From Candidatus Thorarchaeota archaeon (lineage in GTDB: Archaea > Asgardarchaeota > Thorarchaeia > Thorarchaeales > Thorarchaeaceae), in the NCBI GenBank assembly GCA_019057475.1, contig DXJO01000008.1, positions 1 through 64,000 of the forward strand: a DNA stretch of 64,000 nt, given 5' to 3'. The position numbers and the translations under genes were made by a program. Position 1 is the first letter of the stretch. Every line of letters begins with the position of its first letter. This document shows, in pieces, positions 1 through 16,068 of the stretch. The notes beneath the pieces were generated by a model that was given only the letters and a program-made list of their open reading frames with translations, was not told the origin of the DNA and did no database searches.

Positions 1-260
1 CGGCGAACAGAAGTAAGTTCTCTCTCGTTCATGCTAGTGATATTGACGCCATCGATTGTGACAGTTCCCGCGGTAGGCCTGTCGAGAGCGCCGATAAGAT
101 TCAACAGTGTTGTTTTACCTGATCCTGATGGCCCCATGATCCCGATGGCATCACCCTGCTTGACCTGCAGGCTTACGCCTCGAAGGGCTGGAACTGAGAG
201 TTCACCCATCCTGTAGATTCGCGTCACTGAATCGAGGTCTACGATGACATGGTCTTTCAT
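1..260 (-). CDS. ABC transporter ATP-binding protein (LolD/MacB-like), 5' part, runs off window
   Basis: Manual translation from ATG at 260: MKDHVIVDLDSVTRIYRMGELSVPALRGVSLQVKQGDAIGIMGPSGSGKTTLLNLIGALDRPTAG; Walker A GPSGSGKT. Confidence 0.9.
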   Translation of the reverse strand, partial: MKDHVIVDLDSVTRIYRMGELSVPALRGVSLQVKQGDAIGIMGPSGSGKTTLLNLIGALDRPTAGTVTIDGVNITSMNERELTSVR

Positions 261-475
261 ATGTTCCTTCTCAGTCACAGGTACTATCTATGAATTGGAG
301 CGCCTATAACGATATCCCTCTCCGTATTATAATCTCTAAGGTTGAAGAAGTGTACTGAACATGAAGAAAAAAAGCGGCGCGATGGAATGTTGGCAGAAAG
401 GGTTCGTATGGAGGGAATGTATCGTATGTAACGGGGGATAAAGAGAGCCCGCCAACCCGCACCATTGTTTTCAAG

Positions 476-543
476 TGCCCCCTGACATGTTTGAGCCCCT
501 GCATTCCTGACAAGGGGCTACAACGACAAGAAAAGAGGGGGCA
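476..543. other. Nested GC-rich stem-loop
   Basis: TGCCCCCT(476-483)/AGGGGGCA(536-543) enclosing AGCCCCT(494-500)/AGGGGCT(513-519). Confidence 0.5.
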
Positions 544-552
544 GGGTCAAAA

Positions 553-1338
553 GAAGTCCTTGCTGGTCGTTGGGATGCTCTGGCCACCTTGGCTATCCCT
601 GACAATGATAAGAGCATTAGAGCTCTCCTGAGGTTTCTGCATCTTATGGATAAGTGGGGCTATACAACATCCTTGATTGAGGTTGCATCTTCTGGAACTG
701 TGAACTGCTTCGACTACTATGACAGTAGGAATGGAGCGTGGGCAATACCGTGGGAACTGCTGGAGATTCAGATTCGCAAGGTATACAACGATGAGCTGGG
801 GTCAGCGTTTCCTCGAATTGACCATCCCACCTCAAGGACACAAATTCATCTTGATCGACTTGATTTGCAGATACTTGGCCAGGTCAGACATGGTAGTTCG
901 TCGATAGCTAAGGTAAGAACTGCACTCCATATTGGACAACAGAGAGCGGCTAAGAAATTGAAGCGGATGAGAGAAGCAGGCTTGATTCTCTCGACTTGGG
1001 AAATTCACAATATTGGCTTGGATGAGAGTGTGATTGTTGTTACTGATGACAAGAGAACCGCTGAGTCGATCACGGCATGGACACAGCGTCTCCCAAGAAG
1101 CATTGTATCGTTCGATGAGAATCGTAGGCTTTGCCTTGTGATGCAGTTGCTCAGTGGTGGAAGCTTTGGAATGGCGAGGGCTCTTTCCTCACTGTCAGGA
1201 AGAGTTACTGTTGATATGCTTGGCATAAAGATCTATGGCGCCTGGGGTTTCCCAACCAGCCTTTGGAATGTAAGCGAGCAAAGATGGCGGACACCCGACG
1301 ACGGACTTAGGGAATGGTTTGAGAAGCTGAATGCTTGA
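553..1338 (+). pseudogene. Winged-helix/Lrp-like regulator, apparently 5'-truncated
   Basis: HTH-like LDRLDLQILGQV...IAKVRTALHIGQQRAAKKLKRMREAGLI. Frame reads protein-like upstream of the TTG at 589 (EVLAGRWDALATLAIP) but is closed by TGA at 508-510 with no ATG after it. Confidence 0.5.
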
Positions 1339-1565
1339 AACTTGTCATGGATGATTTGAACGTATCATGCACAGAAGAAGACTCGATGCACAACGAATTC
1401 CAGTTCTTCCGGGAAGATTCGCATTTACAAGTTCATCATAGATGAGTGGAAACGAGTTCAAGGATGACTCGCAGAAAGCGACATTGTCATGCAAAGCCAG
1501 CAGAGAAGCCGGAATCAAAGGGGACGGGGTCAAGCGTGTGAAAAACATAGTTGCCAGTGGAGATC

Positions 1566-2198
1566 CTAATCCAGTCGCCAGGTGTACCTAGGTTGATCTG
1601 AAGGCCTTAATCTTGTCCAGAGAAGATACAATCCAAAAGGGAATATGTCAACAAGAACTGGCACGACCAAGAACCAAGGGAACACCGACGGACCGGGATC
1701 ATCTGGCTTGTTGTAGAGAATCAACAAGGGATACACCGATGATGAGGACATGTGTCCGAGGGTATCATTCGCAAAGAACTGGACATCAAACCAGGTTTCC
1801 GTTCTGCTGACGTTGACTGTGAACCGACCAACGTAGGTGTTTCCCTCGCCCGGTGGTAGTAGACTCATTGATTGATTCGTCCAGCTAGTTTCATTGGCGC
1901 GCTTATAGCTCAGCCAGACCGCATCCACGCCGTCAGGATCGTAGACATCTATGTCTACTGACGGAGTGCATTGATTGTAAAATGTGGATGTCAGGTCTGT
2001 GCTATAATTCCCAAATACTGGTCCTTCGCTTGAATTCGAAATAAGGGCACTCTGACTATCATTCAGGTTTGGCATGTCACACACAACAGGTGTCTGTGGG
2101 ATTACTAGAAGAATGAACACCAGAAAGACTGTGCGACCATTCAAGCGGTCACAACAGAGTCTGAAAGAGTTCTTCATCATAGCTACCAGCTGTTCCAA
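1566..2198 (-). CDS. Small secreted/membrane-anchored Ig-like protein
   Basis: N-terminal hydrophobic segment; DVYDPDGVDAVWLSY...FFANDTLGH beta-sandwich; C-terminal TM. Confidence 0.7.
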   Translation of the reverse strand: MEQLVAMMKNSFRLCCDRLNGRTVFLVFILLVIPQTPVVCDMPNLNDSQSALISNSSEGPVFGNYSTDLTSTFYNQCTPSVDIDVYDPDGVDAVWLSYKRANETSWTNQSMSLLPPGEGNTYVGRFTVNVSRTETWFDVQFFANDTLGHMSSSSVYPLLILYNKPDDPGPSVFPWFLVVPVLVDIFPFGLYLLWTRLRPSDQPRYTWRLD

Positions 2199-2411
2199 CT
2201 ATAGCTGAACCTAATCCAGGTCGGATGAAGATGATGTTTCTGCTCCCAGTCAGCCGACCAAGCATCACGGAATTCCAGCAGTAGATATACTGTTGAACCG
2301 GTGAGGTATATGTTTCTCATCATATTCTGTACTGTACCGGTTCAATGGGCTCCACACTCACCAGTTCGAGGGGCTCGGTCTCTTCGTTAAGCTTGGACAA
2401 CATGACCCAAC

Positions 2412-3761
2412 TCATTGAAACACATTCCATGGTTTTGGCCTCAAAGTGACTACCAAAGCAACAACAACTATCCCAACCACTCCTGTTAGAATTATGGCAT
2501 TCAGATTTTGATAGTTGATGTCATGAGTAGTAGAAACTTGCCCTCTAAATCGTGTAAGAGTAAGATTGGCATCAGCTTCGGGTAAAGAAAAACTGCCTTC
2601 AGCATAAATCACACCATCACCAACTGCTGCAATAGAGTTGATTCTGTAAGTAGTTTCAATCTCATTCAACACAGGCGACCACTCAGGAATACTGTCTAGA
2701 TTTGCATTAAGTTTCATGATTATGTATGGCTGCTCATAAACAGATAGCAAAGAGTAGACATCACCCTCAGGAGATACAACAAGATCAACTGCTGTAACAT
2801 AGAGAATTTCAGTATCATTCTGAACAATGAGTCTTCTTGTGATGAGTTCATCCCCATCTCGGCTCCATTTTGAGATATTGCAGTAGAAGTTCATCGAAAT
2901 CGCAGAATCTTTCAAAATGGAGTGGGAATTGCCAGTAGCCAAGATGACTATGTCTGGACGGGTCATGGAATATATTGACCCATCTGAAGAGGGTGAGATA
3001 CTGTGAAAGCTACCTTCGATATTCCAAATGACGTTTCCGTCTTCATCCCACTTTGTGAGGTATTGGCTTGTTAGAGTATATACAGACCCATCAGGAGAAA
3101 TGCCGAGCTGTCGACTACTATGAAATTCCGGACTATTTATGATTCTGTCCCAGATGAGGGATCCATTGCTACTCAATTTCACCAGAACCGGAAGTGGTCC
3201 AGTTGGTGCAATGAGTACATACACTGAGCCATCTTCAGACACCACAACATCCCTGGCTGTTTCATATTCTCCATAGTCAAGTGTTTGAATCCACGATACA
3301 GTACCAGATTGATTAACCTTCAACACCAGAGAGTCGCTACCACTTGACGATGGAGTACTTCCTATGAGGTACACGAAATGTGAATCAGCAGTGACAGCAT
3401 GAACGAGACTACTTCCAGCTTCATTGATTGTTTTCCCCCAAATCAGACCAGCAGTTGCGTTCCACTTTGCGAGCAGGATCCCATATGTAACACCTGGCAG
3501 ATATGAAGTCCCAATAGTGAAGATTTGATTCAGGTGAGGAACCGCTATCCCTTTTCCTTGGTCTGAATAATCAGTCCCCCACTCACCAGAATTAGTGATA
3601 TTGAAATCTCCACGCGGGTTTGCTAAATCAAGAACTATATCATCAACAACAGTTGATGAAGATACAGCTCCTCCAGATTGAATATAGAATGGTAGCATAA
3701 GTAATGCACAAAGGAAAACGGTCAGTAATGGTTGACAACCATTCCTCTTCAAAATGGACAA
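2412..3761 (-). CDS. Membrane-anchored beta-propeller surface protein
   Basis: Signal peptide; repeated 'S.DGSVY....VKL..NG..IW' blades; C-terminal TM plus basic tail. Confidence 0.8.
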   Translation of the reverse strand: MSILKRNGCQPLLTVFLCALLMLPFYIQSGGAVSSSTVVDDIVLDLANPRGDFNITNSGEWGTDYSDQGKGIAVPHLNQIFTIGTSYLPGVTYGILLAKWNATAGLIWGKTINEAGSSLVHAVTADSHFVYLIGSTPSSSGSDSLVLKVNQSGTVSWIQTLDYGEYETARDVVVSEDGSVYVLIAPTGPLPVLVKLSSNGSLIWDRIINSPEFHSSRQLGISPDGSVYTLTSQYLTKWDEDGNVIWNIEGSFHSISPSSDGSIYSMTRPDIVILATGNSHSILKDSAISMNFYCNISKWSRDGDELITRRLIVQNDTEILYVTAVDLVVSPEGDVYSLLSVYEQPYIIMKLNANLDSIPEWSPVLNEIETTYRINSIAAVGDGVIYAEGSFSLPEADANLTLTRFRGQVSTTHDINYQNLNAIILTGVVGIVVVALVVTLRPKPWNVFQ

Positions 3762-3961
3762 CTCCTCATATATTGCATCTAACGGTTAAGATTCACTAAA
3801 AATTCAGATATCTTTTTCGATTTCTACAGGCACAGGTGATTAGACCGATAAACGGCAGGACACAAGAGTTCGCAATCGGTGACGATGCGAGGGATTTAAC
3901 AATATTTCTCCCATCACACATCTCTTGCCTGAGACCAGATGACGAACTGAACTGATAGGAG

Positions 3962-4249
3962 GTGATTGAAACGACAGAGATTGATACGACCTCGAAACGT
4001 CCGCCACCAGATAAGGATAAGAGAGAGTTCAGAGCCGCAGTACGCTCTCTCTGTGTCTGGGTCGTTGTATTTGCTTTCTGTTTCGTCTTTGGCTTCATGG
4101 GAGACCTTGTTGTTGACTTTGGCTCAGCAGTTGCCTTCATGGTGATATTGCCTTTCGCGGCAGTCTATCTCTTCGTGTCCATCTACAAGATAGGAAAGGC
4201 AATTTTTAATCTCTACAAACATAGGCGAAGTGATTCTTCGCCTTCGTGA
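3962..4249 (+). CDS. Small 2-TM membrane protein
   Basis: GGAGG directly at the GTG start; two hydrophobic helices. Confidence 0.6.
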   Translation: MIETTEIDTTSKRPPPDKDKREFRAAVRSLCVWVVVFAFCFVFGFMGDLVVDFGSAVAFMVILPFAAVYLFVSIYKIGKAIFNLYKHRRSDSSPS

Positions 4250-4349
4250 TACTGTTTACCCCTGGCTGGAGGACACGAACATGCTCAAGGATTCTCAATC
4301 ACCACTGGGAGAGTCCACGCACAGGGCGAATTGAACAATGTTGAGATGC

Positions 4350-4369
4350 AATCCGTAACGTTACGGATT
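4350..4369. promoter_or_regulatory. Perfect 20-bp palindrome, candidate operator
   Basis: AATCCGTAACGTTACGGATT is its own reverse complement; CTGCACTAGTGCAG at 4391-4404 is a second palindrome. Confidence 0.35.
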
Positions 4370-4804
4370 CTTTCGATTTATCGAGAGACCCTGCACTAGT
4401 GCAGAATGAAAGGACTCATTCACAAAGGCCAGACAGTCTTCTTTGTCTTCTTGGATATTAACACACTGTTAATACTGGGCTTTTTGGGCTCATTCCCCAA
4501 CTCCGATGTGTCTTCCAGACTCCCATATCAGGTGTAAAGTGTGAACTGGGTAAAAACGTGGCAGTCCATTGTAGGTTGAACCAATGATATGCTGCTTTAC
4601 TACTTAGTTTGTAGCAGGGAACCCACAAGACCCTCGAAGAGGGCGTGTCTGGCTCACCTCTGAATTTTTGTATTATCTGACAGGGCCTCGACTTGCAGAA
4701 AAGTTAAAATTCCCAGAGCATAGATGTGGATTATACTGAGTGGCGGCAGAGAACCCGTAGCCGAAGGCTGTCCAGATTTTGAACTGCCGAGAGGGTCTAG
4801 CAGA

Positions 4805-5722
4805 ATGGGTGAGAGTGTTGTTTCTGTTCGAGGACTAACGAAGCATTTCAATGGTGTACAGGCTCTGGCGGATGTTCATCTTGAGGTGGCGCCTGGAGTC
4901 TTTGGACTCATTGGACCCAATGGCGCAGGAAAGACAACCCTTCTTCGAGTACTTCTGGGCCTGATAAGACCAGACAAGGGACAAGCCAAGGTTCTTGGTT
5001 TGGACATATCAAGCCAATCCCTGCAGATTAGGCAGAGAGTAGGTGTGCTACATGAGAAACCCACCTATCCACCATTCATGAGGATTGATAATTACTTGAA
5101 GATGGTGACTGAGCTGTATGGGAGTGCGAAAACAACTCAGAAGCTACTTGACTTGGTGGGCCTTTCCGATGTGGGGTGGAGGCAGATCCGGACCCTCTCA
5201 GCAGGCATGAATCAACGGCTTGGAATAGCTCAGAGTCTTGCTGGAGACCCTGAGTTGGTGTTCATGGACGAACCGACTTCGAACCTTGATGTCATAGGAA
5301 GAGATGAGATTATCAAGCTATTAGTTGAGCTATACCATGAAACAGGGATCAGTTTCTTCATATCTTCACACAATCTCTCACAGCTTGAGAAATTATGTCA
5401 TAATGTTGCCTTCATTGACGCTGGACGTGTGATAGAGAAAGGACCAACTGGTCAGATTATAGATAAGCATACTTCTGGGCTCTACAATGTTGTGTGTTCG
5501 GATCCAAAATCGTTAATCTATGCCTTTGAAAGTGACCCTGACATACTCGTCGTTGGCACATCTGGAATTGATGCCGTCACTCTCTGCGTCAAGAATCTTG
5601 ATTTTACATCAGCGAGAGAACAGATATACCATACTGCAGCACAACACGACATCGAGCTTCGGACCTTCACGAAAGCTAACACCCTTGAAGATGCATATAG
5701 GGAGGTTATCCGTAATGCGTGA
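4805..5722 (+). CDS. ABC-2 type transporter ATP-binding protein
   Basis: GPNGAGKT, LSAGM signature, MDEPT, SSH; start placed at MGESVV. Confidence 0.92.
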   Translation: MGESVVSVRGLTKHFNGVQALADVHLEVAPGVFGLIGPNGAGKTTLLRVLLGLIRPDKGQAKVLGLDISSQSLQIRQRVGVLHEKPTYPPFMRIDNYLKMVTELYGSAKTTQKLLDLVGLSDVGWRQIRTLSAGMNQRLGIAQSLAGDPELVFMDEPTSNLDVIGRDEIIKLLVELYHETGISFFISSHNLSQLEKLCHNVAFIDAGRVIEKGPTGQIIDKHTSGLYNVVCSDPKSLIYAFESDPDILVVGTSGIDAVTLCVKNLDFTSAREQIYHTAAQHDIELRTFTKANTLEDAYREVIRNA

Positions 5723-6524
5723 GCGATTATCTGAACTGAGGAAACTGTCCTGTCTTGAATTGACTCTCTCCTATCGATTCCCGACGATAGAGTTTCTGGT
5801 CGCCATCTTAGTGTTCTCTTCTGGCCTTGGTGTCTTGTCAATCGGCATGACAAGTATTGGAATGAATCTTAATCCCGATCCATACTACAACGCGACACAG
5901 ACAACTGAACATTACACAGAGCACATGGTGCAGAAAAAGACTCTCGCCTATGTTCAGGCCCTTGTAACTTGTACTAACGTACTCTTCTTTCTGATTCCTC
6001 TTTTTGTTGCCTTCACTGTGGCTCGACCCTTTGAAGATGGGACCTTGAAAACTATTCTTTCTTACCCTGTTAATCGCTCCACCTTGATGTCTGTAAGGAC
6101 GCTCTTGCTGCTTTCACTTACGAGTATTCCCACCATTGCATTATCTGCTGTTTGGACGAGTACTCTCATTCCATCTGATCTGAACATTGGTTATGCAATG
6201 ATTGCATCAATCGCCACTCTAGTGTCAATATTGATGATGTATGCAATCTCGCAGTTTGCTGCGATAATCTCCAAGAAGTCATCAGCTACAGTGATCGTTG
6301 GGATGATATTCTGGATTATGGTTACTACACTTATCTATGGCCCATTCTTACCGATCACTCTAGTTGCTACTTTAAATCCAGTCTCTGCAGTTTTCAATTT
6401 TATAGTTGGAGGAGAATATGCTCCAACAATTAGCGATCTGGTAGTAGGCATATCCTCTGCACTAGTAATCGCATTGTGTCTGATTGCGACTAGTCTGAAG
6501 TTATTCTTCAAGGCGGAGGTGTAG
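5715..6524 (+). CDS. ABC-2 type permease
   Basis: About 6 TM helices, 'FEDGTLKTILSYPVNR' motif, overlaps the ATPase stop. Confidence 0.85.
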   Translation: MRERLSELRKLSCLELTLSYRFPTIEFLVAILVFSSGLGVLSIGMTSIGMNLNPDPYYNATQTTEHYTEHMVQKKTLAYVQALVTCTNVLFFLIPLFVAFTVARPFEDGTLKTILSYPVNRSTLMSVRTLLLLSLTSIPTIALSAVWTSTLIPSDLNIGYAMIASIATLVSILMMYAISQFAAIISKKSSATVIVGMIFWIMVTTLIYGPFLPITLVATLNPVSAVFNFIVGGEYAPTISDLVVGISSALVIALCLIATSLKLFFKAEV

Positions 6525-6529
6525 ATGAC

Positions 6530-7024
6530 ATGCGAGTCCTGCGCTTTGGTACTCTGCTGATGGTCATTGGTCTTTCCATTGTGGCTATTGCTGCTTTCCC
6601 TCCTAGAACCGGAATGGGTGGAGGTGGACCATTGGAACCCGGCGGATATCAGGGTGGTCTGTATATGTTCACCAGTAACATCCACGTGACCATTGATGTT
6701 AGAGATAACCTAACAATCTCACTGTACCTCCTTGATTGGGATGATACTCTGACGCTGTTGCAGACAGGTTCCTTGGATCACACAAGTCCCCACATTGCGT
6801 ATCATAACATCACATCATTCAGCGGCATCATAGAGGTTCCTGCTCCGGGAGTTTACTCGCTTGTTGCGGATTCGACACATAACGAAACTGTATTCTTGGA
6901 TATTGATATGTACACGATTCTGCCTCAGACCCACATACTCGCACCTGGATTAGTCTTCATATGCCTTGGAGCATCCATAATTATACTGAGGATAATGTAC
7001 ACTAAATACACCGCCGGTCAATGA
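6530..7024 (+). CDS. Membrane protein with extracellular beta domain, ABC operon partner
   Basis: N- and C-terminal TM; 5 nt after the permease. Confidence 0.7.
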   Translation: MRVLRFGTLLMVIGLSIVAIAAFPPRTGMGGGGPLEPGGYQGGLYMFTSNIHVTIDVRDNLTISLYLLDWDDTLTLLQTGSLDHTSPHIAYHNITSFSGIIEVPAPGVYSLVADSTHNETVFLDIDMYTILPQTHILAPGLVFICLGASIIILRIMYTKYTAGQ

Positions 7025-7111
7025 AATCGTGTAGCCAGAGGAAAACTGCTCTTTGCCTTCTGGCAAGGAGCGTGCGAAAAAACATCTCGACACGCACCAT
7101 TCTAGTTAGCC

Positions 7112-7552
7112 ATGCTCCTCCTGCATGTATGGTATTTCGGTGATACTCCATACGCTATTTGCGACTACCGATATCAGCAAAGCAGCATCTGGATACGCAG
7201 AAACCTGACATGGCTTCTGCGATTCAGAACAACAAGAACGAATATCTTTGGAACAACAGTCATAAGTAATCGCGATTATCTGGTAAGTCTCTTCAAGGAT
7301 GGGGATACACTTGTGGAGTACGAGCACACAGAGGTGATTGGCAACAGCCTGATGGCCCACATAACCGTTCAATTTCCAGTCCTGAAATCTATTGACAAGT
7401 GCCTCACCGTACACGTCATTAACACAAGTTCCGCGACTACTACAGGGGCGGTGTCCAACATAAAGGTGAGCGGCACAGTAGTCGGCTTCACTCTAGAAAA
7501 TCTCGGAATTTCTACGACTCTCTCGTGTAATCTAGCATGCGTCGGATTTTAG
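7112..7552 (+). CDS. Hypothetical beta-rich protein (possibly a fragment)
   Basis: Open frame; C-terminal half is Thr/Val/Gly-rich. Confidence 0.3.
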   Translation: MLLLHVWYFGDTPYAICDYRYQQSSIWIRRNLTWLLRFRTTRTNIFGTTVISNRDYLVSLFKDGDTLVEYEHTEVIGNSLMAHITVQFPVLKSIDKCLTVHVINTSSATTTGAVSNIKVSGTVVGFTLENLGISTTLSCNLACVGF

Positions 7553-7935
7553 ATCTGAGGCGACACTATGGCTAAATCAAGGGTGAGAAAACGGCATAGA
7601 TTAGTTACACCTAACGAGTCGTTTTTTGGCGTTGTTTCACCCACCTTCTGCGGTGATAGAAAATGAAGAAACAAATTGTGCCCATAATCCTTCAGTTACC
7701 CTTTGATGGAAAAATACTTCAAGCAATGAGTCTGTGGAACTTAATGCGTACCATTCGGCTGCTACTGCTAGGGTTGTGAAGACACGCGACAGGCCTTCGA
7801 GCAACCCCCTTTTGGAGATCTAGCTGCATTTTCCTGCATTGCTCTTTGAGAAAGTCGAAGGCCCGCGAAATCTAGGATGATGTACATGCCAATTGTAGTG
7901 AGCAGAGAGAGGAATACGAGAGGTTCACAGCGGCG

Positions 7936-8259
7936 ATGAATAAGAAACGCGGGGTCAGTCCCCAGCCCAAGGCATCTAAGCCTGAACTGAGATATCTGTA
8001 CATAAGATACAAAAAGAATGGTAGGTTTCGGGCCAAGCGGTTGACAGTGAGGGACAAGGGCTTAAGGACCCACCATTGTGAAGTTGTGGGGGACTACAAA
8101 ATGTCTCAGGTGCTTAAAGCACGAAGCCGGCATGGGCTCATTCTGGAATTAGACAAACCCGAACACCTAGAGGTGTTGGTCGAATGCGCGTTTCAGTACC
8201 TAGGAGCAGATCCCGACAATCGGAGATGGTACTGGGATGATGATGCCATCAAGGCATAG
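7936..8259 (+). CDS. Hypothetical basic protein; an HTH-like segment continues in frame after the TAG (8260-8349)
   Basis: 107-aa ORF; after TAG: CIAKETGISEGRVSQVLSDIKINVAKRLL*. Confidence 0.45.
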   Translation: MNKKRGVSPQPKASKPELRYLYIRYKKNGRFRAKRLTVRDKGLRTHHCEVVGDYKMSQVLKARSRHGLILELDKPEHLEVLVECAFQYLGADPDNRRWYWDDDAIKA

Positions 8260-8380
8260 TGCATCGCTAAAGAAACTGGTATTTCTGAGGGTCGAGTCAG
8301 CCAGGTCTTAAGTGATATTAAAATCAATGTTGCTAAAAGATTGTTGTGATTGTTTCATAGTAAAGAAAAAGGTAATTAAA

Positions 8381-8689
8381 ATGGAAAGAAATGAGAAATT
8401 GATATTGGTTTTAATGTTAATTGGTATTATTGGAATTGGCAGTGTGGCGGTAATTCAGAGTAATTATGATTTGTTTGTAGATCTCTTAAAATCTTTGCTT
8501 ACTCCAAATGACATATTGCTTGTAGTGCTTGTTATAATTGGAATACTCCTTGTAAGTCTTGGTATAGCAGTGTGGTATTTGTGGTTAGGAATAGATAAAA
8601 AAAGAAAGGAAAGGCGGGAGACTAATATAGTTACAAAAGTGTTACTAAGGAAACACCATTGCCCCACCAGAATCACTACAGATTTTTGA
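8381..8689 (+). CDS. AT-rich 2-TM membrane protein
   Basis: MERNEKLILVLMLIGIIG...; visibly lower GC than flanks. Confidence 0.55.
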   Translation: MERNEKLILVLMLIGIIGIGSVAVIQSNYDLFVDLLKSLLTPNDILLVVLVIIGILLVSLGIAVWYLWLGIDKKRKERRETNIVTKVLLRKHHCPTRITTDF

Positions 8690-8789
8690 TGGACTTCGAT
8701 CCCCCGCGCTATAGGTAAACCAAGTCACGGGGCGATGAAACGTGAAAGTACTTATTTATGCGGGAGAATGACCTGTCGGAGGAATCAAG

Positions 8790-9008
8790 TTGGTCTGGGT
8801 GCTAATCGCTTTCTTTGGATTAATTGCCATGTTCGCGTATATTCTAGACTGGAAATTAAGCAGGCGAAAACGTTCCTTTCAAACCAGTGTTGCGAGAGAA
8901 ACCAATACCCAAAAACTTTTTGCGTCAAAGACAATTGATTCGGCCTTCTTCGATGGAGAGAGCCCAGACTACGCAGAGGCCCTTTCAAGGGTTCGCGGAA
9001 GATGCTAA
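8790..9008 (+). CDS. Small single-pass membrane protein
   Basis: GGAGG upstream; N-terminal TM followed by basic residues. Confidence 0.5.
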   Translation: MVWVLIAFFGLIAMFAYILDWKLSRRKRSFQTSVARETNTQKLFASKTIDSAFFDGESPDYAEALSRVRGRC

Positions 9009-9305
9009 CGCCTAGAACGGAGCGCCACGGCTTTCACGTGAATCGGTTTACTTGACTATGGGGCTTCTGTGGACCTTCAAGGCCCACACTACTTTTCACG
9101 CTTAGCATTGTATGTCTTTTGGTCGGCGCGCTAGGGTAGACGACATTTCTAGACAATGAATACACCTTTTAGTAACCCGTTACTAAAAGAAGTCCAGCTA
9201 GGCACCATATTAGACCAAGAGAACGTTTCTGCAAATCAAAGCTTAATAGTTTCTAACCTATCATTTAATAGGAACGTGCCTGACGTGCTGCTCGAGTGTT
9301 CACGA

Positions 9306-9689
9306 ATGGAACGACCCGATTACCGCCAACTCGCCAAGCTTTTGGAGGAGATGAACAAGGAAGGCGGTTTCTTTGCATCAATTCTGTCAAGGAATGACGG
9401 TCTTCTGATGGCTTCAGCAGTCGCTCCCACCTCAAACAGAGACCTCATAGCAGCAATGTCGGGTTTTCTCACAGACACGGCAGAGCGAGTGCGCGAGGAG
9501 CTCTCTCTGGGGGCTCTCAAGGACATCAGCATTCGTTGCAATGAGGGGAAAGCTGTTTTCCGGAAAATCGGATCCAAAGCTGAGCAGAGCTTGATACTGG
9601 CTGCACTCATGCCGCGCAATGTTCGCTACCACAACAGGCCTCTCGGCAAGGCCGCCACTCGCATTCGTATCCTCATGGGCTACCGCTGA
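9306..9689 (+). CDS. Roadblock/LC7 domain protein
   Basis: GFFASILSRNDGLLMASA...DLIAAMS pattern; about 127 aa from MERPDY. Confidence 0.88.
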   Translation: MERPDYRQLAKLLEEMNKEGGFFASILSRNDGLLMASAVAPTSNRDLIAAMSGFLTDTAERVREELSLGALKDISIRCNEGKAVFRKIGSKAEQSLILAALMPRNVRYHNRPLGKAATRIRILMGYR

Positions 9690-9790: not shown

Positions 9791-10126
9791 GTGGCAAACG
9801 CAAAGAGCGAGGATGAATCCAAGTCTGAAGATGACGATGGCTCATCGAAGATTGTGATTGTTCTCTTCAAGTCTGACACATGCGCTTTCTGTCCGCGAGC
9901 TGAAGAGGTTGTACGTGATACTATCCAGAATTTCTCGCCAGAGTCCTTTAAGCTCAGAATCGTCAATGTAAGCGAGAATCCAGAGGTCGCAGAAGAGTTC
10001 GGAATCGTGGCATTGCCTACGACGATGATCGGAGGCGTTTCAATCATAGGTATCCCCGAACCTGAGATGCTGATGAAGATGATTATGGGTGCTGGGGTTT
10101 CGAAGATGAGAGGTGCAAGAAAATGA
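9791..10126 (+). CDS. Thioredoxin-fold protein with CxxC, KaiB-like
   Basis: CAFC; FKLRIVNVSENPEVAEEFGIVALPT resembles KaiB [25 protein letters not shown]; ATGA overlap with the KaiC-like gene. Confidence 0.8.
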   Translation: MANAKSEDESKSEDDDGSSKIVIVLFKSDTCAFCPRAEEVVRDTIQNFSPESFKLRIVNVSENPEVAEEFGIVALPTTMIGGVSIIGIPEPEMLMKMIMGAGVSKMRGARK

Positions 10127-10869
10127 GCAACTTTACCATAGAACGTGTGAATACGGGAGTTCCAGGCTTGGACGAGCTTGTGGAGGGTGGGTTTCCAAAG
10201 GGAGATACCATCCTTGTCGCGGGCAAAGCTGGAACCGGGAAGAGCGCGCTCGCAATCCAGTTTCTGTATAACGGTGCGCTGCAATACGGAGAGGCCGGCG
10301 TTTTAGTGACGTTGGAAGAACCCCCTCATCTCATCAAGCGGAATATGATGATTTTTGGAATGGACCTTGCGAAGCTGGAGAAGGAGCGCAAACTGGCAAT
10401 AGTTGACCTATCACCTTCCAAGGAAGTGACTCCTGTCACCATGGGCGAATTTCCAAGCTTTGACCTCTCGGGCTTGGAAGCAATCATCATGAGTCATGTG
10501 AAGAAACTGAAGGCAACGAGGGTTGTAATCGACACACTCTCAATCTTGGCATACAAATTCCGAAGCAGAGACATTCTTCGTGAGGAATTCTTCAAACTTA
10601 CAGCTAATATAACCAAGAGTGGTGTCACCCTACTCCTGACAAGTGAGATTCCTGAACACCACCTCGGGCTAGGAGTCTTTGATATCGAGGCCTTTATGGC
10701 TAGCGGTGTCTTAGTGCTATACTACGAGAAAATTAGCGATACTCTGCGGTCTAGATCAATAGAGGTGTTGAAGTTAAGAGGATCGAAGCACAGCTCTAGG
10801 ATACACCCGATGAGGATCACAGAAATAGGGGTCAGAGTGTTTCCGGGAGAGATAAGTCCCGGTGTTTAA
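10123..10869 (+). CDS. Single-domain KaiC/RAD55-family ATPase (CI-like)
   Basis: TGVPGLDEL, Walker A GKAGTGKS, catalytic LEE, RVVIDT, KLRG finger, B-loop-like DLSP...FDLSGL. Confidence 0.92.
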   Translation: MSNFTIERVNTGVPGLDELVEGGFPKGDTILVAGKAGTGKSALAIQFLYNGALQYGEAGVLVTLEEPPHLIKRNMMIFGMDLAKLEKERKLAIVDLSPSKEVTPVTMGEFPSFDLSGLEAIIMSHVKKLKATRVVIDTLSILAYKFRSRDILREEFFKLTANITKSGVTLLLTSEIPEHHLGLGVFDIEAFMASGVLVLYYEKISDTLRSRSIEVLKLRGSKHSSRIHPMRITEIGVRVFPGEISPGV

Positions 10870-10888: not shown

Positions 10889-11614
10889 GTGCCTATGTTG
10901 GGAAAGAACGAGTCCAAGAGTCCCTGCATTGGTAAGCCCAAAACAGCGCGTCCCATGATGGCTGATTTCGTCCAGTTCGGGCAATTGACACAGGTGTCTT
11001 GCATGCTTGTAGGCCCGCTTGGATCTGGGAAAACTACTTACGCCGAGGCATTTCTGGCAGACGGACTGAAGCTTGGTTTCCCCGCAGTCTACGTGACTAC
11101 TGATGTTTCTCCACGCGTAGTGAGAAATGACATGAGCCGGCATGGTTGGATTATCGAGCGCTGCGAATCATCTGGACATTTCGTATTCATCGATGGATAC
11201 TCGGAGCGGATGGGAGCTCCCATTGCCAGTGGTGCTCGCTCTCTTGCGAAGGTGGAAGACATCACGGAACTGGGTATAGTTCTCTCCGGGGTTCTAGAGA
11301 ACATGGTGTGCGCGCGAGTAGTCATCGACAGCCTCTCAACCTTGATACTGCATTCAAATCCTGCAACAATGCCCAGATCAGTTCAGCGACTTGGCGGACG
11401 TGTTACACAGAACTCTCACAGTATCATGTTCATTCTCGAGGATGGTGTCCACGACGAGAAGACATACGCAACCTACTCGTATCTTGTGGACGCAGTCCTA
11501 CGTTTCAGAATTGATGAAAGCGGCTCCGAACCCGCTCACCAAGTGAGGATGGATCGGATGCGGAGCACTGAAGCCTCAAGAGAATGGCATGACTTCGTTA
11601 TCGGTTCTCCGTGA
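10889..11614 (+). CDS. Second single-domain KaiC/RAD55-family ATPase (CII-like, divergent)
   Basis: GPLGSGKT, RVVIDSLS, YSYLVDAV, RMRST; TTD in place of the catalytic EE. Confidence 0.85.
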   Translation: MPMLGKNESKSPCIGKPKTARPMMADFVQFGQLTQVSCMLVGPLGSGKTTYAEAFLADGLKLGFPAVYVTTDVSPRVVRNDMSRHGWIIERCESSGHFVFIDGYSERMGAPIASGARSLAKVEDITELGIVLSGVLENMVCARVVIDSLSTLILHSNPATMPRSVQRLGGRVTQNSHSIMFILEDGVHDEKTYATYSYLVDAVLRFRIDESGSEPAHQVRMDRMRSTEASREWHDFVIGSP

Positions 11615-11667: not shown

Positions 11668-13959
11668 GTGGAGTCTATTATAGTCGCTGCACTAAGGGAT
11701 ATTCTGTGTGCATCCATGTCCCTCGACGATGGTCTCTCCACAATTCAACAGATGGTCGGTGATGATGCGGTTACTGCTTTTGAAGTTGCACGTGCGATAG
11801 AGGAGATCATTCTCCGGCGCCCCAGCCTTGCGAGTAACAAACTTATGGAGATATCAATCAAGCTCGCTTCTGACAAGAATACTATGCTTCCGGATATGCT
11901 GATGCTCCTTGACACACGATACGTAAGTGCACACAGTCGTGTCGAAACTGAGATACTTCCCGACAAAGCTGCGATTCCGAAGTTGTTGGACCTCTTGGGA
12001 AACCTCTCGGATGCAATAGAGTCATCACTTAGGTTGAACCTGCGGCCGCTCCTTCCGTTTCTTGCTGATGAATTACTCGCGACACTTAACGCAGTTCATT
12101 CCCGCGCCCACAAGGCGTCAACCGCTCTTGCTCTGAGGGAAATTCATTACTTAACTTGGATTCTGACTAATGCAGGACTATTCGAAGAGGCCGAGGCTCT
12201 CCTGAATCGCCTAACAGTTCTCGCAAAGGAGATGAAAATCCACGACCTCTGGTTTGATGCATCTCTTGATGAGGCTGGAGCTCTTACGGAGTTGGCCATG
12301 TTCAATGAGGCTCGAGAAATTCTGCAGGAACTCAGGTCACTAGCTGATAAACAAAAGGATCCAGTTCGACAAGCCGCAGTTGCGTTGCAGCTCAGCATCA
12401 CCGAAACAAGAGATGATTCAGTTTCTCACGAAGAAGCCCGGAAATCGGGTGATAACGCAGCAGAATTGGTTCAGAAGATTCTGGATTCCGGGAGTGACGG
12501 CAGCGGGGGATTGGGTCTGGCGCAACTCATTATCGGCTCCAACATCTTGGCAAACGGCTGGCGATTAGCAGTTCCACAAGCACTCGAGAGACTTGAATCC
12601 GGACTAGAAGTGTTTGAACAGATTGAAGAACCTGATACAGCGCAGTCACTTCTCTTGGCCAAGTGCTTGTCGGATTTGGGATTCGCTCACGGACTTATGA
12701 GAGACCATGAGAGTGTCACCAAAAGCATAGAATATCTTGAGAGGGCCAAGACATGCCTTCGAAGCCTTGAGAAACACAGCTATGATTCCAGTGTGGATGT
12801 AGCTAGATGCGAGCATGCGATTGGATGGATCTGCCTTGGAACCGACTCTGATGAACTATGGCCAGTAGGACTGAAGGCATTTCAGAACGCAGTCAAAGCC
12901 AGAGAGAATCTACGGGATGAGGGTGCAGTTTCCGAGCTCGAGCTTGTTGGTAGCAAGATGGGACTAGCGCTCTCGCAGATGAGGCTTCTAGAACGTGCTG
13001 AGAGTGATGATGAGGACATCATTCGTGAAACCTTGGTCCAGTACATACCGCTTTTTCCCACAGATACTCGTTCAGTTGCTGAGGCTGCAATTACAACTTA
13101 CAATCTTGTATGGCTAGCAACTAGGCACGGAGCAGCACTGCCTGACAGGCTCCTGAGGTTGCTTGACGATTTGGACCGAATGTTCTCTGATGCGCGGACC
13201 CATTCCGACTCAATTTTCTTCCAAGGTGCTTTCCTCGTGGTGCCTTTCGTGAATGCATCTTGGCAAGCCCTCTATGATCGAGCTAGTCAGATGACCGAGG
13301 ACACATTCGAGCTCTCAGACGCATCTTTTGTCGTGGCAGCGCTGGCGAAATCGAAGATGAATATCGATGCACTGAGTCTTGAGTCAAGTGTTCGCATCCT
13401 GCAGCCCGTGACTGAGGATTTGCAGAGTGCCGACCCCCTCCTCGCGCAATACTGGACTGGTCAGACTTCGTTGGCAAGAACAGTGAAAGCGTTCTATCAA
13501 CAGAAGGATTTCTCAGAGCTTGCTAGTGGTCTTTATGAATCAGCGGTGAACCTAAGGATGGTTGACTTGGTGAAGCCGACCTCCGGAGAATCGGTGGAGT
13601 TCATCCGGGCAACATCACTCTCCCTTTCCAGAGTTTTGATGCGCTTTGCTATCGCCTTGGAGCATCGATACGATGTTAAGATTGACAAGAAGCAATACAA
13701 TGATGTGCCTGATGACGTTGTCTTTGATCAGATTGATTTCGTTCTTGCAGAAGACTGGCTTGGACTTATGAAGATCGCAGAAGCCTATCTTGAGATGGTT
13801 GAAACGTCTGAAACTGTGCGTGCCGAACCCTACCTCAATGCTGTCTTCTCGAACGTGGCCCGCGCGCTTAGAATGATGGACAAGGTAGCACTTGTTGATC
13901 GACGAGTACTTTCGTTTCTAGGCGATGCAATGAACAAACGTTACTACTTGCGAAGTTGA
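11668..13959 (+). CDS. Large all-helical TPR-like protein
   Basis: Repeated 'A...LG..H........A.EY.E.A' helical pairs; Leu/Ala/Glu-rich. Confidence 0.65.
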   Translation: MESIIVAALRDILCASMSLDDGLSTIQQMVGDDAVTAFEVARAIEEIILRRPSLASNKLMEISIKLASDKNTMLPDMLMLLDTRYVSAHSRVETEILPDKAAIPKLLDLLGNLSDAIESSLRLNLRPLLPFLADELLATLNAVHSRAHKASTALALREIHYLTWILTNAGLFEEAEALLNRLTVLAKEMKIHDLWFDASLDEAGALTELAMFNEAREILQELRSLADKQKDPVRQAAVALQLSITETRDDSVSHEEARKSGDNAAELVQKILDSGSDGSGGLGLAQLIIGSNILANGWRLAVPQALERLESGLEVFEQIEEPDTAQSLLLAKCLSDLGFAHGLMRDHESVTKSIEYLERAKTCLRSLEKHSYDSSVDVARCEHAIGWICLGTDSDELWPVGLKAFQNAVKARENLRDEGAVSELELVGSKMGLALSQMRLLERAESDDEDIIRETLVQYIPLFPTDTRSVAEAAITTYNLVWLATRHGAALPDRLLRLLDDLDRMFSDARTHSDSIFFQGAFLVVPFVNASWQALYDRASQMTEDTFELSDASFVVAALAKSKMNIDALSLESSVRILQPVTEDLQSADPLLAQYWTGQTSLARTVKAFYQQKDFSELASGLYESAVNLRMVDLVKPTSGESVEFIRATSLSLSRVLMRFAIALEHRYDVKIDKKQYNDVPDDVVFDQIDFVLAEDWLGLMKIAEAYLEMVETSETVRAEPYLNAVFSNVARALRMMDKVALVDRRVLSFLGDAMNKRYYLRS

Positions 13960-13980: not shown

Positions 13981-16068
13981 CTAGCTATTATTCATCGTGG
14001 CTTCTCTGTAGCCTCCGCTCTTGGCTCCCCAGGTGGCCCAGCCAGAAGTGGATGTTCTAATTTCGGTTGCCAGACCGAAGGACTCACGCACGGGAATTTC
14101 CGCGGTTATTCTATAGAGGCCCCTCTCCGAGTCTATCTCGAGAACTTGACCCTTGCGCCTTGCCAATATTGCAGTCAGATTACCAACATGTTCCTCCGGC
14201 GCGCTGATCTCTAGACGAGTCCAAGGTTCCAGAACAACTGGGTTTCCTGCTTGAATGCTCTTCCTTGTGGCCTGAAGTAGTGGCTGGGTTATCTCTCGCC
14301 ACGAAGATTCGGGACCTTCGACTCGAATCTTGGCTTCATCAATGACCACTACCAGTCTACGCATTCTCTCCCCTGCCACAGGCCCACTGCGGATGATTGC
14401 TCGGAACCCCTCCCTTATCCATTCCGCTTCGTCGGATGTTGGTTCAATCTTTCCTGTTGAATCAACCAAGTAACACCCAGAGATGTGTTGTGAATCCAGC
14501 AGTGTTCCGTACGCTGCAAGATCTTGTCCTTCCTTGAACAGCAGTGCACGCACGGTGAACTCACTCGTGGTGGCATCTCCATCTGAGCATCCATCTCCGT
14601 CTGCTGTTAGCTGTTCTTTGAGCAGGACCATCGGTTTGCCCAGCACAATTTCTATCCCTACGCGCGTAAGCTTCTCAACACTGATCTCGATGTGAAGCTC
14701 TCCAGCTCCTGACAGAAGCATCTCACCTGTTTCTGGATTCGTTTCGAACACAAGTGCTGGGTCCGTTTCCGCGAACTCAGCGATTGGTTGCTGTATTGAA
14801 CTTAGATTAGCCAGAGCCTTCGGCTCTATGGTATACGTGACCACAGGTTCCGTTGGGTACTGCAGCTCGCTCATCGGAATGATTCCTTCTTGGCCCTTCT
14901 CCACGAGAGTATCTCCGACAGCTAGGTTTCTCACGCCAGTTATGAATGCCAGATTCCCTGCTGGCACTGATGGTAGGGCTATCCGTAGCTTGGACATGAA
15001 GAGACCGACTTGCAGTGTCTTTCCATGTTCTTTTGTCCGAACATTCACGAGTGGACTTCCCCGTTGTAGAGTTCCCGAGAATACCCTAACAGCTGCAACT
15101 AATCCCGCATGTCTATCGGGTTGGACATCTCCTACGAGGAGAACGCAAGGACCTGCAGTGGAACACTTCACGAGACCTGTTCCCACCTTTGTTTTGACAT
15201 CGCCTTTCCAAAAGCTAGGAATGCGATATGCCTGTGCACGAACAGGGTTCGGGCAAACATCAACAACTGAGTCTAGTATAACTTCCGCGACCGGATATTT
15301 CTGAGAGAGGACTTGTCGATCCTCGCCTTGATAGACCTCGACAATCTCCTCAATGATTTCAACAAACGCATCTGCCAAATCTGCAGGCTTCGTGCTCCCT
15401 CCTGCTCTTGACTTCAGTGTGCCAAGACCCACGCCCCACTTGTCTAACGCGGAACCGACGCACAGAGACCCTCTACTGAAAGAGACCTCCCAACTCTCCA
15501 GAAGGTCGTCCCCGAGGTATTTACCGAGCATGGCATTAAACTCTCTGACGGTCTTGTTGATTTCTTCAGCCACTTTTCTGGGTCCGAGCCTTCTTTCTTT
15601 GATGAGTCGGTCAACCTTGTTTACAAACAACGTTGGTCGTACGAGTTCATCCATCGCCTGTCTTGTCACGGTCTCAGTCTGAACCATTATTCCTTCAACA
15701 ACATCGACAACGATGATTGCACCATCCGTCAGCCTCAGTCCTCTAGTGACGTGGCTTGAGAAGTCGATGTGTCCTGGCGTGTCTATCAGGTGGATAAGAT
15801 GCTCTTGGTCTTCCTTCTGGTGTATTAGTGTTATCCCGGATGCCTTGATGGTTATGCCTCTCTCTTGCTCTATCAAGTCGTAGTCCATCAGTCTGGCTGT
15901 TGCCGCGATATCTTTCGAGAGAAGACCGGAGGCTGCTATCAGGGAGTCCGTGAGAGTTGTCTTTCCATGATCGATATGTGCAATGATAGTACAGTTTCGA
16001 ATCTGCTCTGTGCCTTCAATGAGACCAACTGCGCGCTCATTAACGAATTTCTTGTAGATGCGAGACAA
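13981..16068 (-). CDS. Elongation factor 2 paralogue (aEF-2p-like) lacking the diphthamide HRG motif
   Basis: AHIDHGKTT, RGITI, DTPG, NKVD, GAGELH; domain IV loop reads IRVEGPESSWREI instead of ..IHRGP.Q. Confidence 0.88.
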   Translation of the reverse strand: MSRIYKKFVNERAVGLIEGTEQIRNCTIIAHIDHGKTTLTDSLIAASGLLSKDIAATARLMDYDLIEQERGITIKASGITLIHQKEDQEHLIHLIDTPGHIDFSSHVTRGLRLTDGAIIVVDVVEGIMVQTETVTRQAMDELVRPTLFVNKVDRLIKERRLGPRKVAEEINKTVREFNAMLGKYLGDDLLESWEVSFSRGSLCVGSALDKWGVGLGTLKSRAGGSTKPADLADAFVEIIEEIVEVYQGEDRQVLSQKYPVAEVILDSVVDVCPNPVRAQAYRIPSFWKGDVKTKVGTGLVKCSTAGPCVLLVGDVQPDRHAGLVAAVRVFSGTLQRGSPLVNVRTKEHGKTLQVGLFMSKLRIALPSVPAGNLAFITGVRNLAVGDTLVEKGQEGIIPMSELQYPTEPVVTYTIEPKALANLSSIQQPIAEFAETDPALVFETNPETGEMLLSGAGELHIEISVEKLTRVGIEIVLGKPMVLLKEQLTADGDGCSDGDATTSEFTVRALLFKEGQDLAAYGTLLDSQHISGCYLVDSTGKIEPTSDEAEWIREGFRAIIRSGPVAGERMRRLVVVIDEAKIRVEGPESSWREITQPLLQATRKSIQAGNPVVLEPWTRLEISAPEEHVGNLTAILARRKGQVLEIDSERGLYRITAEIPVRESFGLATEIRTSTSGWATWGAKSGGYREATMNNS

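Follow-up and report, generated by a model that had tools for sequence, protein, structure and literature searches.

A CxxC thioredoxin encoded with a KaiC CI-like ATPase in Thorarchaeota is predicted to dock at the KaiB/SasA site

In a Candidatus Thorarchaeota genome (GenBank assembly GCA_019057475.1), the gene for a small thioredoxin-fold protein runs directly into that of an ATPase resembling the CI domain of KaiC. The locus lies in the window analyzed here, which is the whole stretch of 64,000 nucleotides at positions 1 to 64,000 of contig DXJO01000008.1. It raises the question whether the small protein is a KaiB, an ordinary thioredoxin or a dedicated partner of the ATPase, and whether the two proteins form a timer or a switch. 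The general pairing is already known, as Makarova, Koonin and Albers (2016) state that arCOG01174 KaiC genes are paired with a KaiB-like thioredoxin-family component in many archaeal genomes (PMC4858521). The sentence in question makes no mention of CxxC, Asgard archaea or the B-loop. In our literature search no description of the Thorarchaeota or Asgard operon, of the retained CxxC or of a cysteine-free intermediate was found; most subscription papers were out of reach, and Makarova 2017 (mBio) may describe more. The Asgard origin of the locus agrees with the close homologs of the ATPase, which are named Candidatus Thorarchaeota.

The thioredoxin gene (positions 9791-10126, plus strand, GTG start) encodes 111 amino acids with an acidic N-terminal tail, a CAFC dithiol (residues 31-34, codons at 9881-9892, plus strand), a cis-Pro loop reading ALP (residues 74-76) and a GIPEP motif; it is the predicted B-loop binder. 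Its stop codon overlaps the start codon of the ATPase gene (10123-10869, plus strand) in an ATGA at 10123-10126 on the same strand, a probable case of translational coupling. The ATPase is a single-domain protein of 248 amino acids with the Walker A motif GxxGTGKS, the catalytic residues E65-E66, a K217-L-R219 finger, an acidic loop without Ser-Thr and no cysteine. Its B-loop (residues 94-118, 10402-10476, plus strand) includes the segment P111-L118, which is invariant in all 62 aligned orthologs, in support of the B-loop that had been proposed, and F113/D114 correspond to F121/D122 of S. elongatus KaiC. The overlap and both reading frames are as described in the initial annotation, and all motifs quoted there (CAFC, a thioredoxin segment, a B-loop segment, RVVID and the KLRGSKH end) are found in the translations. 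The KaiB and KaiC sequences which it had given also agree with the fetched ones, with GIVALPT opposite KILATPT and a TPNS stretch opposite the CxxC in the case of KaiB; the alignment with S. elongatus KaiC CI extends over 233 columns, and FDLS is in register in it. While the gene pair is thus real, its limits had been drawn too narrowly, as they leave out the Roadblock gene upstream and the degenerate KaiC and TPR-like genes downstream.

The complete operon lies on one strand in the order Roadblock, CAFC thioredoxin, CI-like ATPase, degenerate KaiC-like protein and TPR-like solenoid. The Roadblock/LC7 protein (9306-9689, plus strand, 127 amino acids) has one cysteine in 63 of 64 orthologs; a longer Roadblock reading frame starting at 9156 extends into inserted DNA. 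The degenerate KaiC-like protein (10889-11614, plus strand, 241 amino acids, exact start uncertain) retains the P-loop and an R223/R225 finger, and its catalytic EE is replaced by DV. The last gene (11668-13959, plus strand) encodes an all-helical TPR-like solenoid of 763 amino acids that is found in the Thorarchaeota family loci reaching far enough and has two cysteines in 47 of 57 orthologs. A fold search with it returned only generic TPR/solenoid matches, e.g. LGN and Ctr9, at 9-15% identity. An EF-2 paralog (13981-16068, minus strand) is convergent on the operon and occupies the same place in loci L201, L203 and L034.

The order Roadblock, thioredoxin, ATPase is present in 30 of 30 Thorarchaeota family loci (our genome included; one locus ends at a contig edge), and the five-gene order is retained in loci L071-L134 as far as their DNA goes, the two sets sharing genomes. 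Together with the occurrence of the pair in other Asgard lineages, this bears out the conservation for which the initial annotation had proposed a synteny check. At the thioredoxin/ATPase junction of 29 family loci, stop and start overlap by 1-8 nt in 22 and are separated by a gap of 3-7 nt in five; in two the start is ambiguous. The overlap recurs across the family loci more often than expected by chance.

The usual neighbor of the operon is a divergently oriented Rab-like GTPase gene, which adjoins the Roadblock gene in 54 of the 58 loci having enough DNA. In the source genome an insertion parts the two. This integrative element was noted at positions 1-9270 of the window and 1-19526 of contig C24 (locus L204) of the same genome (G000), with a 13-bp core at both junctions (9258-9270 in the window, no strand assigned, and 19514-19526 on C24). 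It has a lower GC content (0.45) and carries a gene for a tyrosine-integrase-like protein of 375 amino acids (C24 18317-19444) as well as, by eye, similar-looking small membrane-protein genes on its two arms (window 3962-4249 and C24 15233-15505). The same-genus loci L071, L073 and L004 are intact at the insertion point. In loci L072 and L003, DNA akin to contig C11 of G000 seemingly interrupts the sequence at almost the same place, which suggests an insertion hotspot.

The initial annotation had read the small protein as KaiB-like. However, its closest solved relative is the MJ0307 thioredoxin (PDB 1fo5, E 1e-14), and the MJ0307-like thioredoxin model TIGR00411 gives 57 bits, under its equivalog cut-off of 92.75, as compared to 14 bits (cut-off 145) and 15 bits (cut-off 110) for the NCBIfam KaiB models TIGR02654 and PRK09301. 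With Pfam, thioredoxin scores 29.7-29.8 bits and KaiB (PF07689) 29 bits against a cut-off of 27, the latter match covering only model positions 16-54 of 82. Proteins not linked to KaiC genes reach Pfam KaiB scores of 20-34 bits too, and an hhalign comparison of KaiB with the thioredoxin ends at the PT motif. As had been proposed, the protein is confidently modeled as a minimal thioredoxin fold by AF2 (pLDDT 94.8), its strands and helices following one another as in thioredoxins; AF2 is a program which predicts only the thioredoxin fold for true KaiB as well (PMC10808063). The CxxC at helix 1 and the cis-Pro loop are both present, the cis geometry being taken from the alignment. Fold searches are topped by generic thioredoxins, with KaiB of Legionella (4kun, Z 12.0) and SasA (1t4z, Z 11.3) not above them, and an atlas search returned thioredoxin/glutaredoxin clusters only.

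The CxxC of the 111-residue protein lies where KaiB has a TP[KN]S-type stretch. C31 and C34 are present in all 65 aligned thioredoxin loci, i.e. 64 Thorarchaeota family loci and one further locus of the same order; the exact CAFC is found in 62-63 of the 64 Thorarchaeota loci and CxxC in all of them. The proline-rich (PPP) insert and the IIGDLS-type C-terminal motif of KaiB were not found in the alignment, nor was any fold-switch hallmark of KaiB detected in the thioredoxin sequence. Since the profile and PDB matches favor the MJ0307 type, the fold ranks do not favor KaiB, the CxxC is invariant and the proline insert is missing, the protein is, judging by its sequence, a thioredoxin and not a member of the KaiB family. 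By the same standard it is not a generic copy either, because among the four thioredoxin paralogs of the genome only the operon copy, and none of the three unlinked ones, is matched by the Pfam KaiB model, and because related domains of Asgard proteins occur as fusions with PAS histidine kinases and with V4R domains, much like SasA-type signaling modules. In the PAS histidine kinases (L142-L144 and L146, family f27, and L141), a CxxC thioredoxin domain belonging to this broad group lies internally or at the C-terminus, which gives a layout like that of SasA with a redox motif added. In several Asgard families (L140, L147, L149-L152, L156, L188-L192) such a domain is located N-terminal to V4R domains.

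In the thioredoxin tree, which is based on 91 columns and contains long branches, the KaiB clade (99/97) leaves the Thorarchaeota protein outside. The protein forms a clade of its own, which the free tree also places outside the MJ0307-type clade; AU tests reject neither a grouping with KaiB (p 0.51) nor one with the MJ0307 group (p 0.41). The phylogenetic check suggested earlier can thus neither place the protein with KaiB nor rule this out. In the same tree, a cysteine-free protein from Freyarchaeia is sister to KaiB (98/91; long branches, 91 columns). The thioredoxins encoded next to KaiC-like genes are not a single clade (3 changes), hence the pairing may have more than one origin. The deep nodes of the thioredoxin tree and of the ATPase trees are unresolved, and the latter were built without the single-domain KaiCs of Euryarchaeota and TACK archaea. 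In a careful ATPase tree with a bacterial CI clade of 90/94, the thioredoxin-linked Asgard ATPases fall into a polytomy outside both CI and the main Asgard RAD55-like clade; in a quick tree they group with CI (SH 85). The AU test does not reject a grouping of these ATPases with CI (p 0.47), but as the support for it in the careful tree is below 80, we make no claim of a sister relationship.

By profile score the ATPase is CI-like rather than CII-like (323 vs 146), which, together with its acidic CI-type loop, agrees with the initial assignment. The KaiC CI domain 8ZN5 gives the highest score (177 bits), followed by the single-domain archaeal homolog PH0186 (163), S. elongatus CI (155-158) and PH0284 (116). 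The circadian KaiC model TIGR02655 reaches 162 vs 546 bits on the 248-residue protein, which has one domain and not two in tandem (~500 amino acids), and all four archaeal KaiC TIGRFAMs stay under their cut-offs. The catalytic motifs of CI and the B-loop are both present. Neither ATPase of the operon holds a well-conserved cysteine. As the first has none here and none in 26 of 64 orthologs, it was ruled out as a disulfide substrate of the thioredoxin.

The second KaiC-like protein was considered as the CII half of a split CI + CII pair. An invariant S197 aligns with KaiC S431, and the next residue is Tyr and not Thr. BLAST scores are higher with CI than with CII (48.9 vs 25.0 bits), and in the quick ATPase tree the protein clusters with degenerate archaeal copies and not with CII. 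Together with DV in place of EE, these features rule out this assignment. The two proteins are the only full KaiC-type domains of the genome. No match to KaiA (PF07688) was found in this genome, which is 96% complete, nor does any CII kinase domain in it combine EE with the adjacent Ser-Thr. In view of the missing KaiA match and of the lack of a complete Ser-Thr kinase domain, the sequences make a clock unlikely. Thus, there is little support for the timer which the initial annotation had envisaged, also because the thioredoxin has no fold-switch hallmark.

Outside Thorarchaeota, a CxxC thioredoxin gene is located directly 5' of a KaiC-like gene in Atabeyarchaeia and in family f18, and in Heimdallarchaeaceae the thioredoxin gene directly follows, in 24 of 25 loci, a fused two-domain KaiC with an FDLS-bearing first and a dead second domain. 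In Freyarchaeia (6/6 genomes) and Jordarchaeales (5/5) the thioredoxin partner is cysteine-free and its gene is followed by an active and a dead KaiC. This partner reads TP[KRG]Y at the CxxC position (TPKY in the Freyarchaeia homologs). The dead KaiC of Freyarchaeia is fused to a small GTPase (Freyarchaeum) and followed by a Roadblock-like reading frame. For three further cysteine-free matches (P0215, P0270, P0149) the contigs are too short to reveal a KaiC neighbor. The thioredoxin-to-KaiB-like series foreseen at the outset is thus seen across Asgard lineages, in CxxC as well as in cysteine-free forms. A B-loop motif, [FY][DN][LF]x[GAP][LI], is found in 14/14 thioredoxin-adjacent ATPases, 14/18 bacterial-type CI domains, 0/6 CII domains and 1/27 Asgard KaiC-like proteins without a thioredoxin neighbor, all from the tree set. 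As this motif was drawn up post hoc from the alignment, the scored rows are related and five Jordarchaeales ATPases, which read F[TA]LDGL, fail it at the second position, the way it tracks thioredoxin adjacency is to be read as a sequence-level association over about five lineages and not as a statistic.

Docking on the B-loop, as the initial annotation had suggested, is also predicted by a model of the thioredoxin-ATPase complex. It scored 0.82 as compared to 0.00 for the best control, in a control set without a generic thioredoxin; 58 of 80 solved complexes attain that mark, as do two of 110 mismatched pairs. The runs agree in 99% of contacts and the pLDDT of the partner is 87. In the model, the V73-P76 strand, I86-G87 and T30-F33 of the thioredoxin contact B-loop residues 102-118 and F146 of the ATPase, with D114, L115 and F113 as the top contacts. 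F146 aligns with Y154/155 of helix alpha-6, the tyrosine of the interface between fold-switched KaiB and CI. F122 and D123 of KaiC matter for the binding of KaiB and SasA, their substitution reducing affinity (bioRxiv 10.1101/2020.06.17.158394); we take F121/D122 of S. elongatus to be these residues in T. elongatus numbering. The groove formed by the cis-Pro loop and the CxxC is therefore predicted to dock on F113/D114/L115 at what is the KaiB/SasA site. Columns of the predicted interface are 92% conserved as compared to 72% elsewhere; they include the active site and the cis-Pro, which are conserved in any thioredoxin, and the modeled surface is the ordinary thioredoxin substrate groove. As similar complexes (KaiB-CI and SasA-CI) have been solved, the model may recall these, and its pass may reflect likeness and not binding.

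On balance we favor, as a moderately probable reading, that the thioredoxin acts as an adaptor of the KaiB/SasA kind, dedicated to its partner and constitutively folded, that senses via the B-loop which nucleotide state the CI-like ring is in. The system would be an archaeal switch of the KaiC type and not a clock. In such a scheme the ATPase would form a hexamer, alone or mixed or stacked with the degenerate subunit, the latter still being able to contribute an arginine finger. Hydrolysis of ATP would expose the B-loop, and up to six thioredoxins would dock on the ring, non-covalently since the ATPase has no cysteine. The bound ring could then signal via Roadblock, the TPR scaffold and the neighboring Rab-like GTPase. 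We infer that docking is the core job of the thioredoxin, because Freyarchaeia and Jordarchaeales keep the pair without cysteines. In Thorarchaeota, where the dithiol is invariant and sits at the modeled interface, its redox state may tune binding, as in the redox gating put forward by the initial annotation, a reading that we rate at somewhat less than even.

The invariant dithiol could also mean that the protein is a working oxidoreductase which the KaiC ring sequesters or positions. Depending on the nucleotide state, the B-loop would then either close off the active-site groove or set the enzyme free, and the enzyme's targets would be cysteines of Roadblock, the TPR protein or others elsewhere. 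The modeled B-loop does cover C31-F33 and the cis-Pro groove, and the cysteines of both candidate targets are widely retained. Nevertheless, the cysteine-free partner in the same gene order in 11 of 11 Freyarchaeia/Jordarchaeales genomes and the lack of a well-conserved cysteine in either ATPase make this improbable. We regard as just as improbable that an ordinary MJ0307-type thioredoxin is merely co-transcribed with a KaiC/RAD55 signaling operon and makes no contact, its KaiB likeness being that of a shared fold. This would fit the MJ0307 best match, the lead of generic thioredoxins in the fold searches, the Pfam KaiB scores of unlinked proteins and the AU test for the MJ0307 grouping. It does not explain why the adjacency occurs in five Asgard lineages and is retained after cysteine loss, why the B-loop motif tracks it or why the modeled interface falls on a known site, and the free tree places the protein outside the MJ0307-type clade.

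A split KaiBC timer, with the active ATPase as CI, the second gene as a CII-like half phosphorylated in trans at S197 and thiol oxidation replacing the fold switch to give an hourglass or a redox-entrained oscillator, could draw on the succession of a CI-like and a second KaiC-like gene, their fusion in Heimdallarchaeaceae, the invariant S197 and the retained arginine finger. We consider it highly improbable, given that the second protein has neither EE nor an equivalent of T432 and is nearer to CI and to degenerate archaeal copies than to CII, that no KaiA match was found and that the thioredoxin has no fold-switch hallmark. The boldest extension, that Asgard archaea preserve the ancestral KaiB-KaiC state, appears unlikely to us. 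Here a redox-active thioredoxin would bind a single CI-type ring via its substrate groove, with thiol-set binding relayed to the Rab-like GTPase; the cysteine-free Freyarchaeia/Jordarchaeales protein would be a true intermediate and the sister of KaiB, while two-domain KaiC would have its parallel in the Heimdallarchaeaceae fusion.

The adaptor reading can be placed among known systems. With fold-switched KaiB on the CI B-loop (PDB 5JWO, 5JWQ) the Thorarchaeota protein shares the thioredoxin fold, the LxPT cis-Pro strand, the KaiC-adjacent gene and the predicted docking on an F-D-L B-loop and alpha-6, but it retains the CxxC, has no PPP insert or KaiB C-terminal motif and gives no sign of a ground-state fold; its partner, moreover, is single-domain and comes without a detectable KaiA. 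SasA's N-terminal domain on CI (PDB 6X61, 1T4Z) is similar in its constitutive thioredoxin fold and the same predicted B-loop site, and related Asgard domains sit inside PAS histidine kinases; in contrast to SasA, the Thorarchaeota thioredoxin is standalone and redox-competent by sequence, and its operon has no kinase. Thioredoxins of the MJ0307 family (TIGR00411, PDB 1FO5, 1NHO) have the same minimal fold, CxxC-P, cis-Pro and G-x-P before the last helix, whereas the Thorarchaeota protein has CAFC instead of CPxC, forms a separate clade, scores below the cut-off and belongs to a fixed operon with KaiC. The ATPase resembles PH0186 (2ZTS) and PH0284 (2DR3) in having one RecA/KaiC domain of ~250 amino acids, but it scores highest with the KaiC CI domain 8ZN5 and has a CI-type FDLS loop. 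The archaeal KaiC hub of Makarova 2016 likewise combines a KaiC-like gene with a thioredoxin-family gene, and in it a single-domain KaiC that is active is accompanied by an inactivated copy and by partner genes. In a 2017 survey, KaiB was found only with full-length KaiC (PMC5520375); in Thorarchaeota, on sequence grounds, a KaiB-like partner is paired with a single-domain KaiC.

If binding holds, the CxxC thioredoxin, the cysteine-free thioredoxin and KaiB would form a natural series on one conserved docking site, so that small soluble proteins would suffice to test how KaiB and its fold switch originated. An uncharacterised archaeal KaiC hub would furthermore gain a defined input and, in the closest archaeal relatives of eukaryotes, a link to genes for Roadblock and a Rab-like GTPase. 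The pair is a candidate, testable model for the way in which thioredoxins give rise to regulators of the KaiB type, and it is probably a switch rather than a clock.

Several further arrangements were observed among the Asgard loci. In two Lokiarchaeota genomes (L237, L238) a true kaiB comes after a two-domain kaiC of the bacterial type; these genes probably arrived by transfer and are separate from the Asgard thioredoxin-KaiC pairing. In Ca. Heimdallarchaeum aukensis (L154, 2253-7025) the KaiC-thioredoxin block is doubled, 3 kb apart, and a PLP decarboxylase and a partial KaiC are run together in one reading frame of 874 amino acids, which reflects a tandem duplication or an assembly artefact. 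Thioredoxin-like genes without CxxC occur in L242, L253 and L252 (family f16) and in L032 (4674-5027); some of them adjoin small GTPase genes and form a tandem with a CxxC copy. Loss of the dithiol recurs within this group. In L050 and L038, KaiC-like genes have a small GTPase gene and a Roadblock or longin-like gene as neighbors, but there is no thioredoxin gene within ~3.5 kb; the KaiC-like gene of L050 retains a CI-type loop despite the lack of a thioredoxin neighbor.
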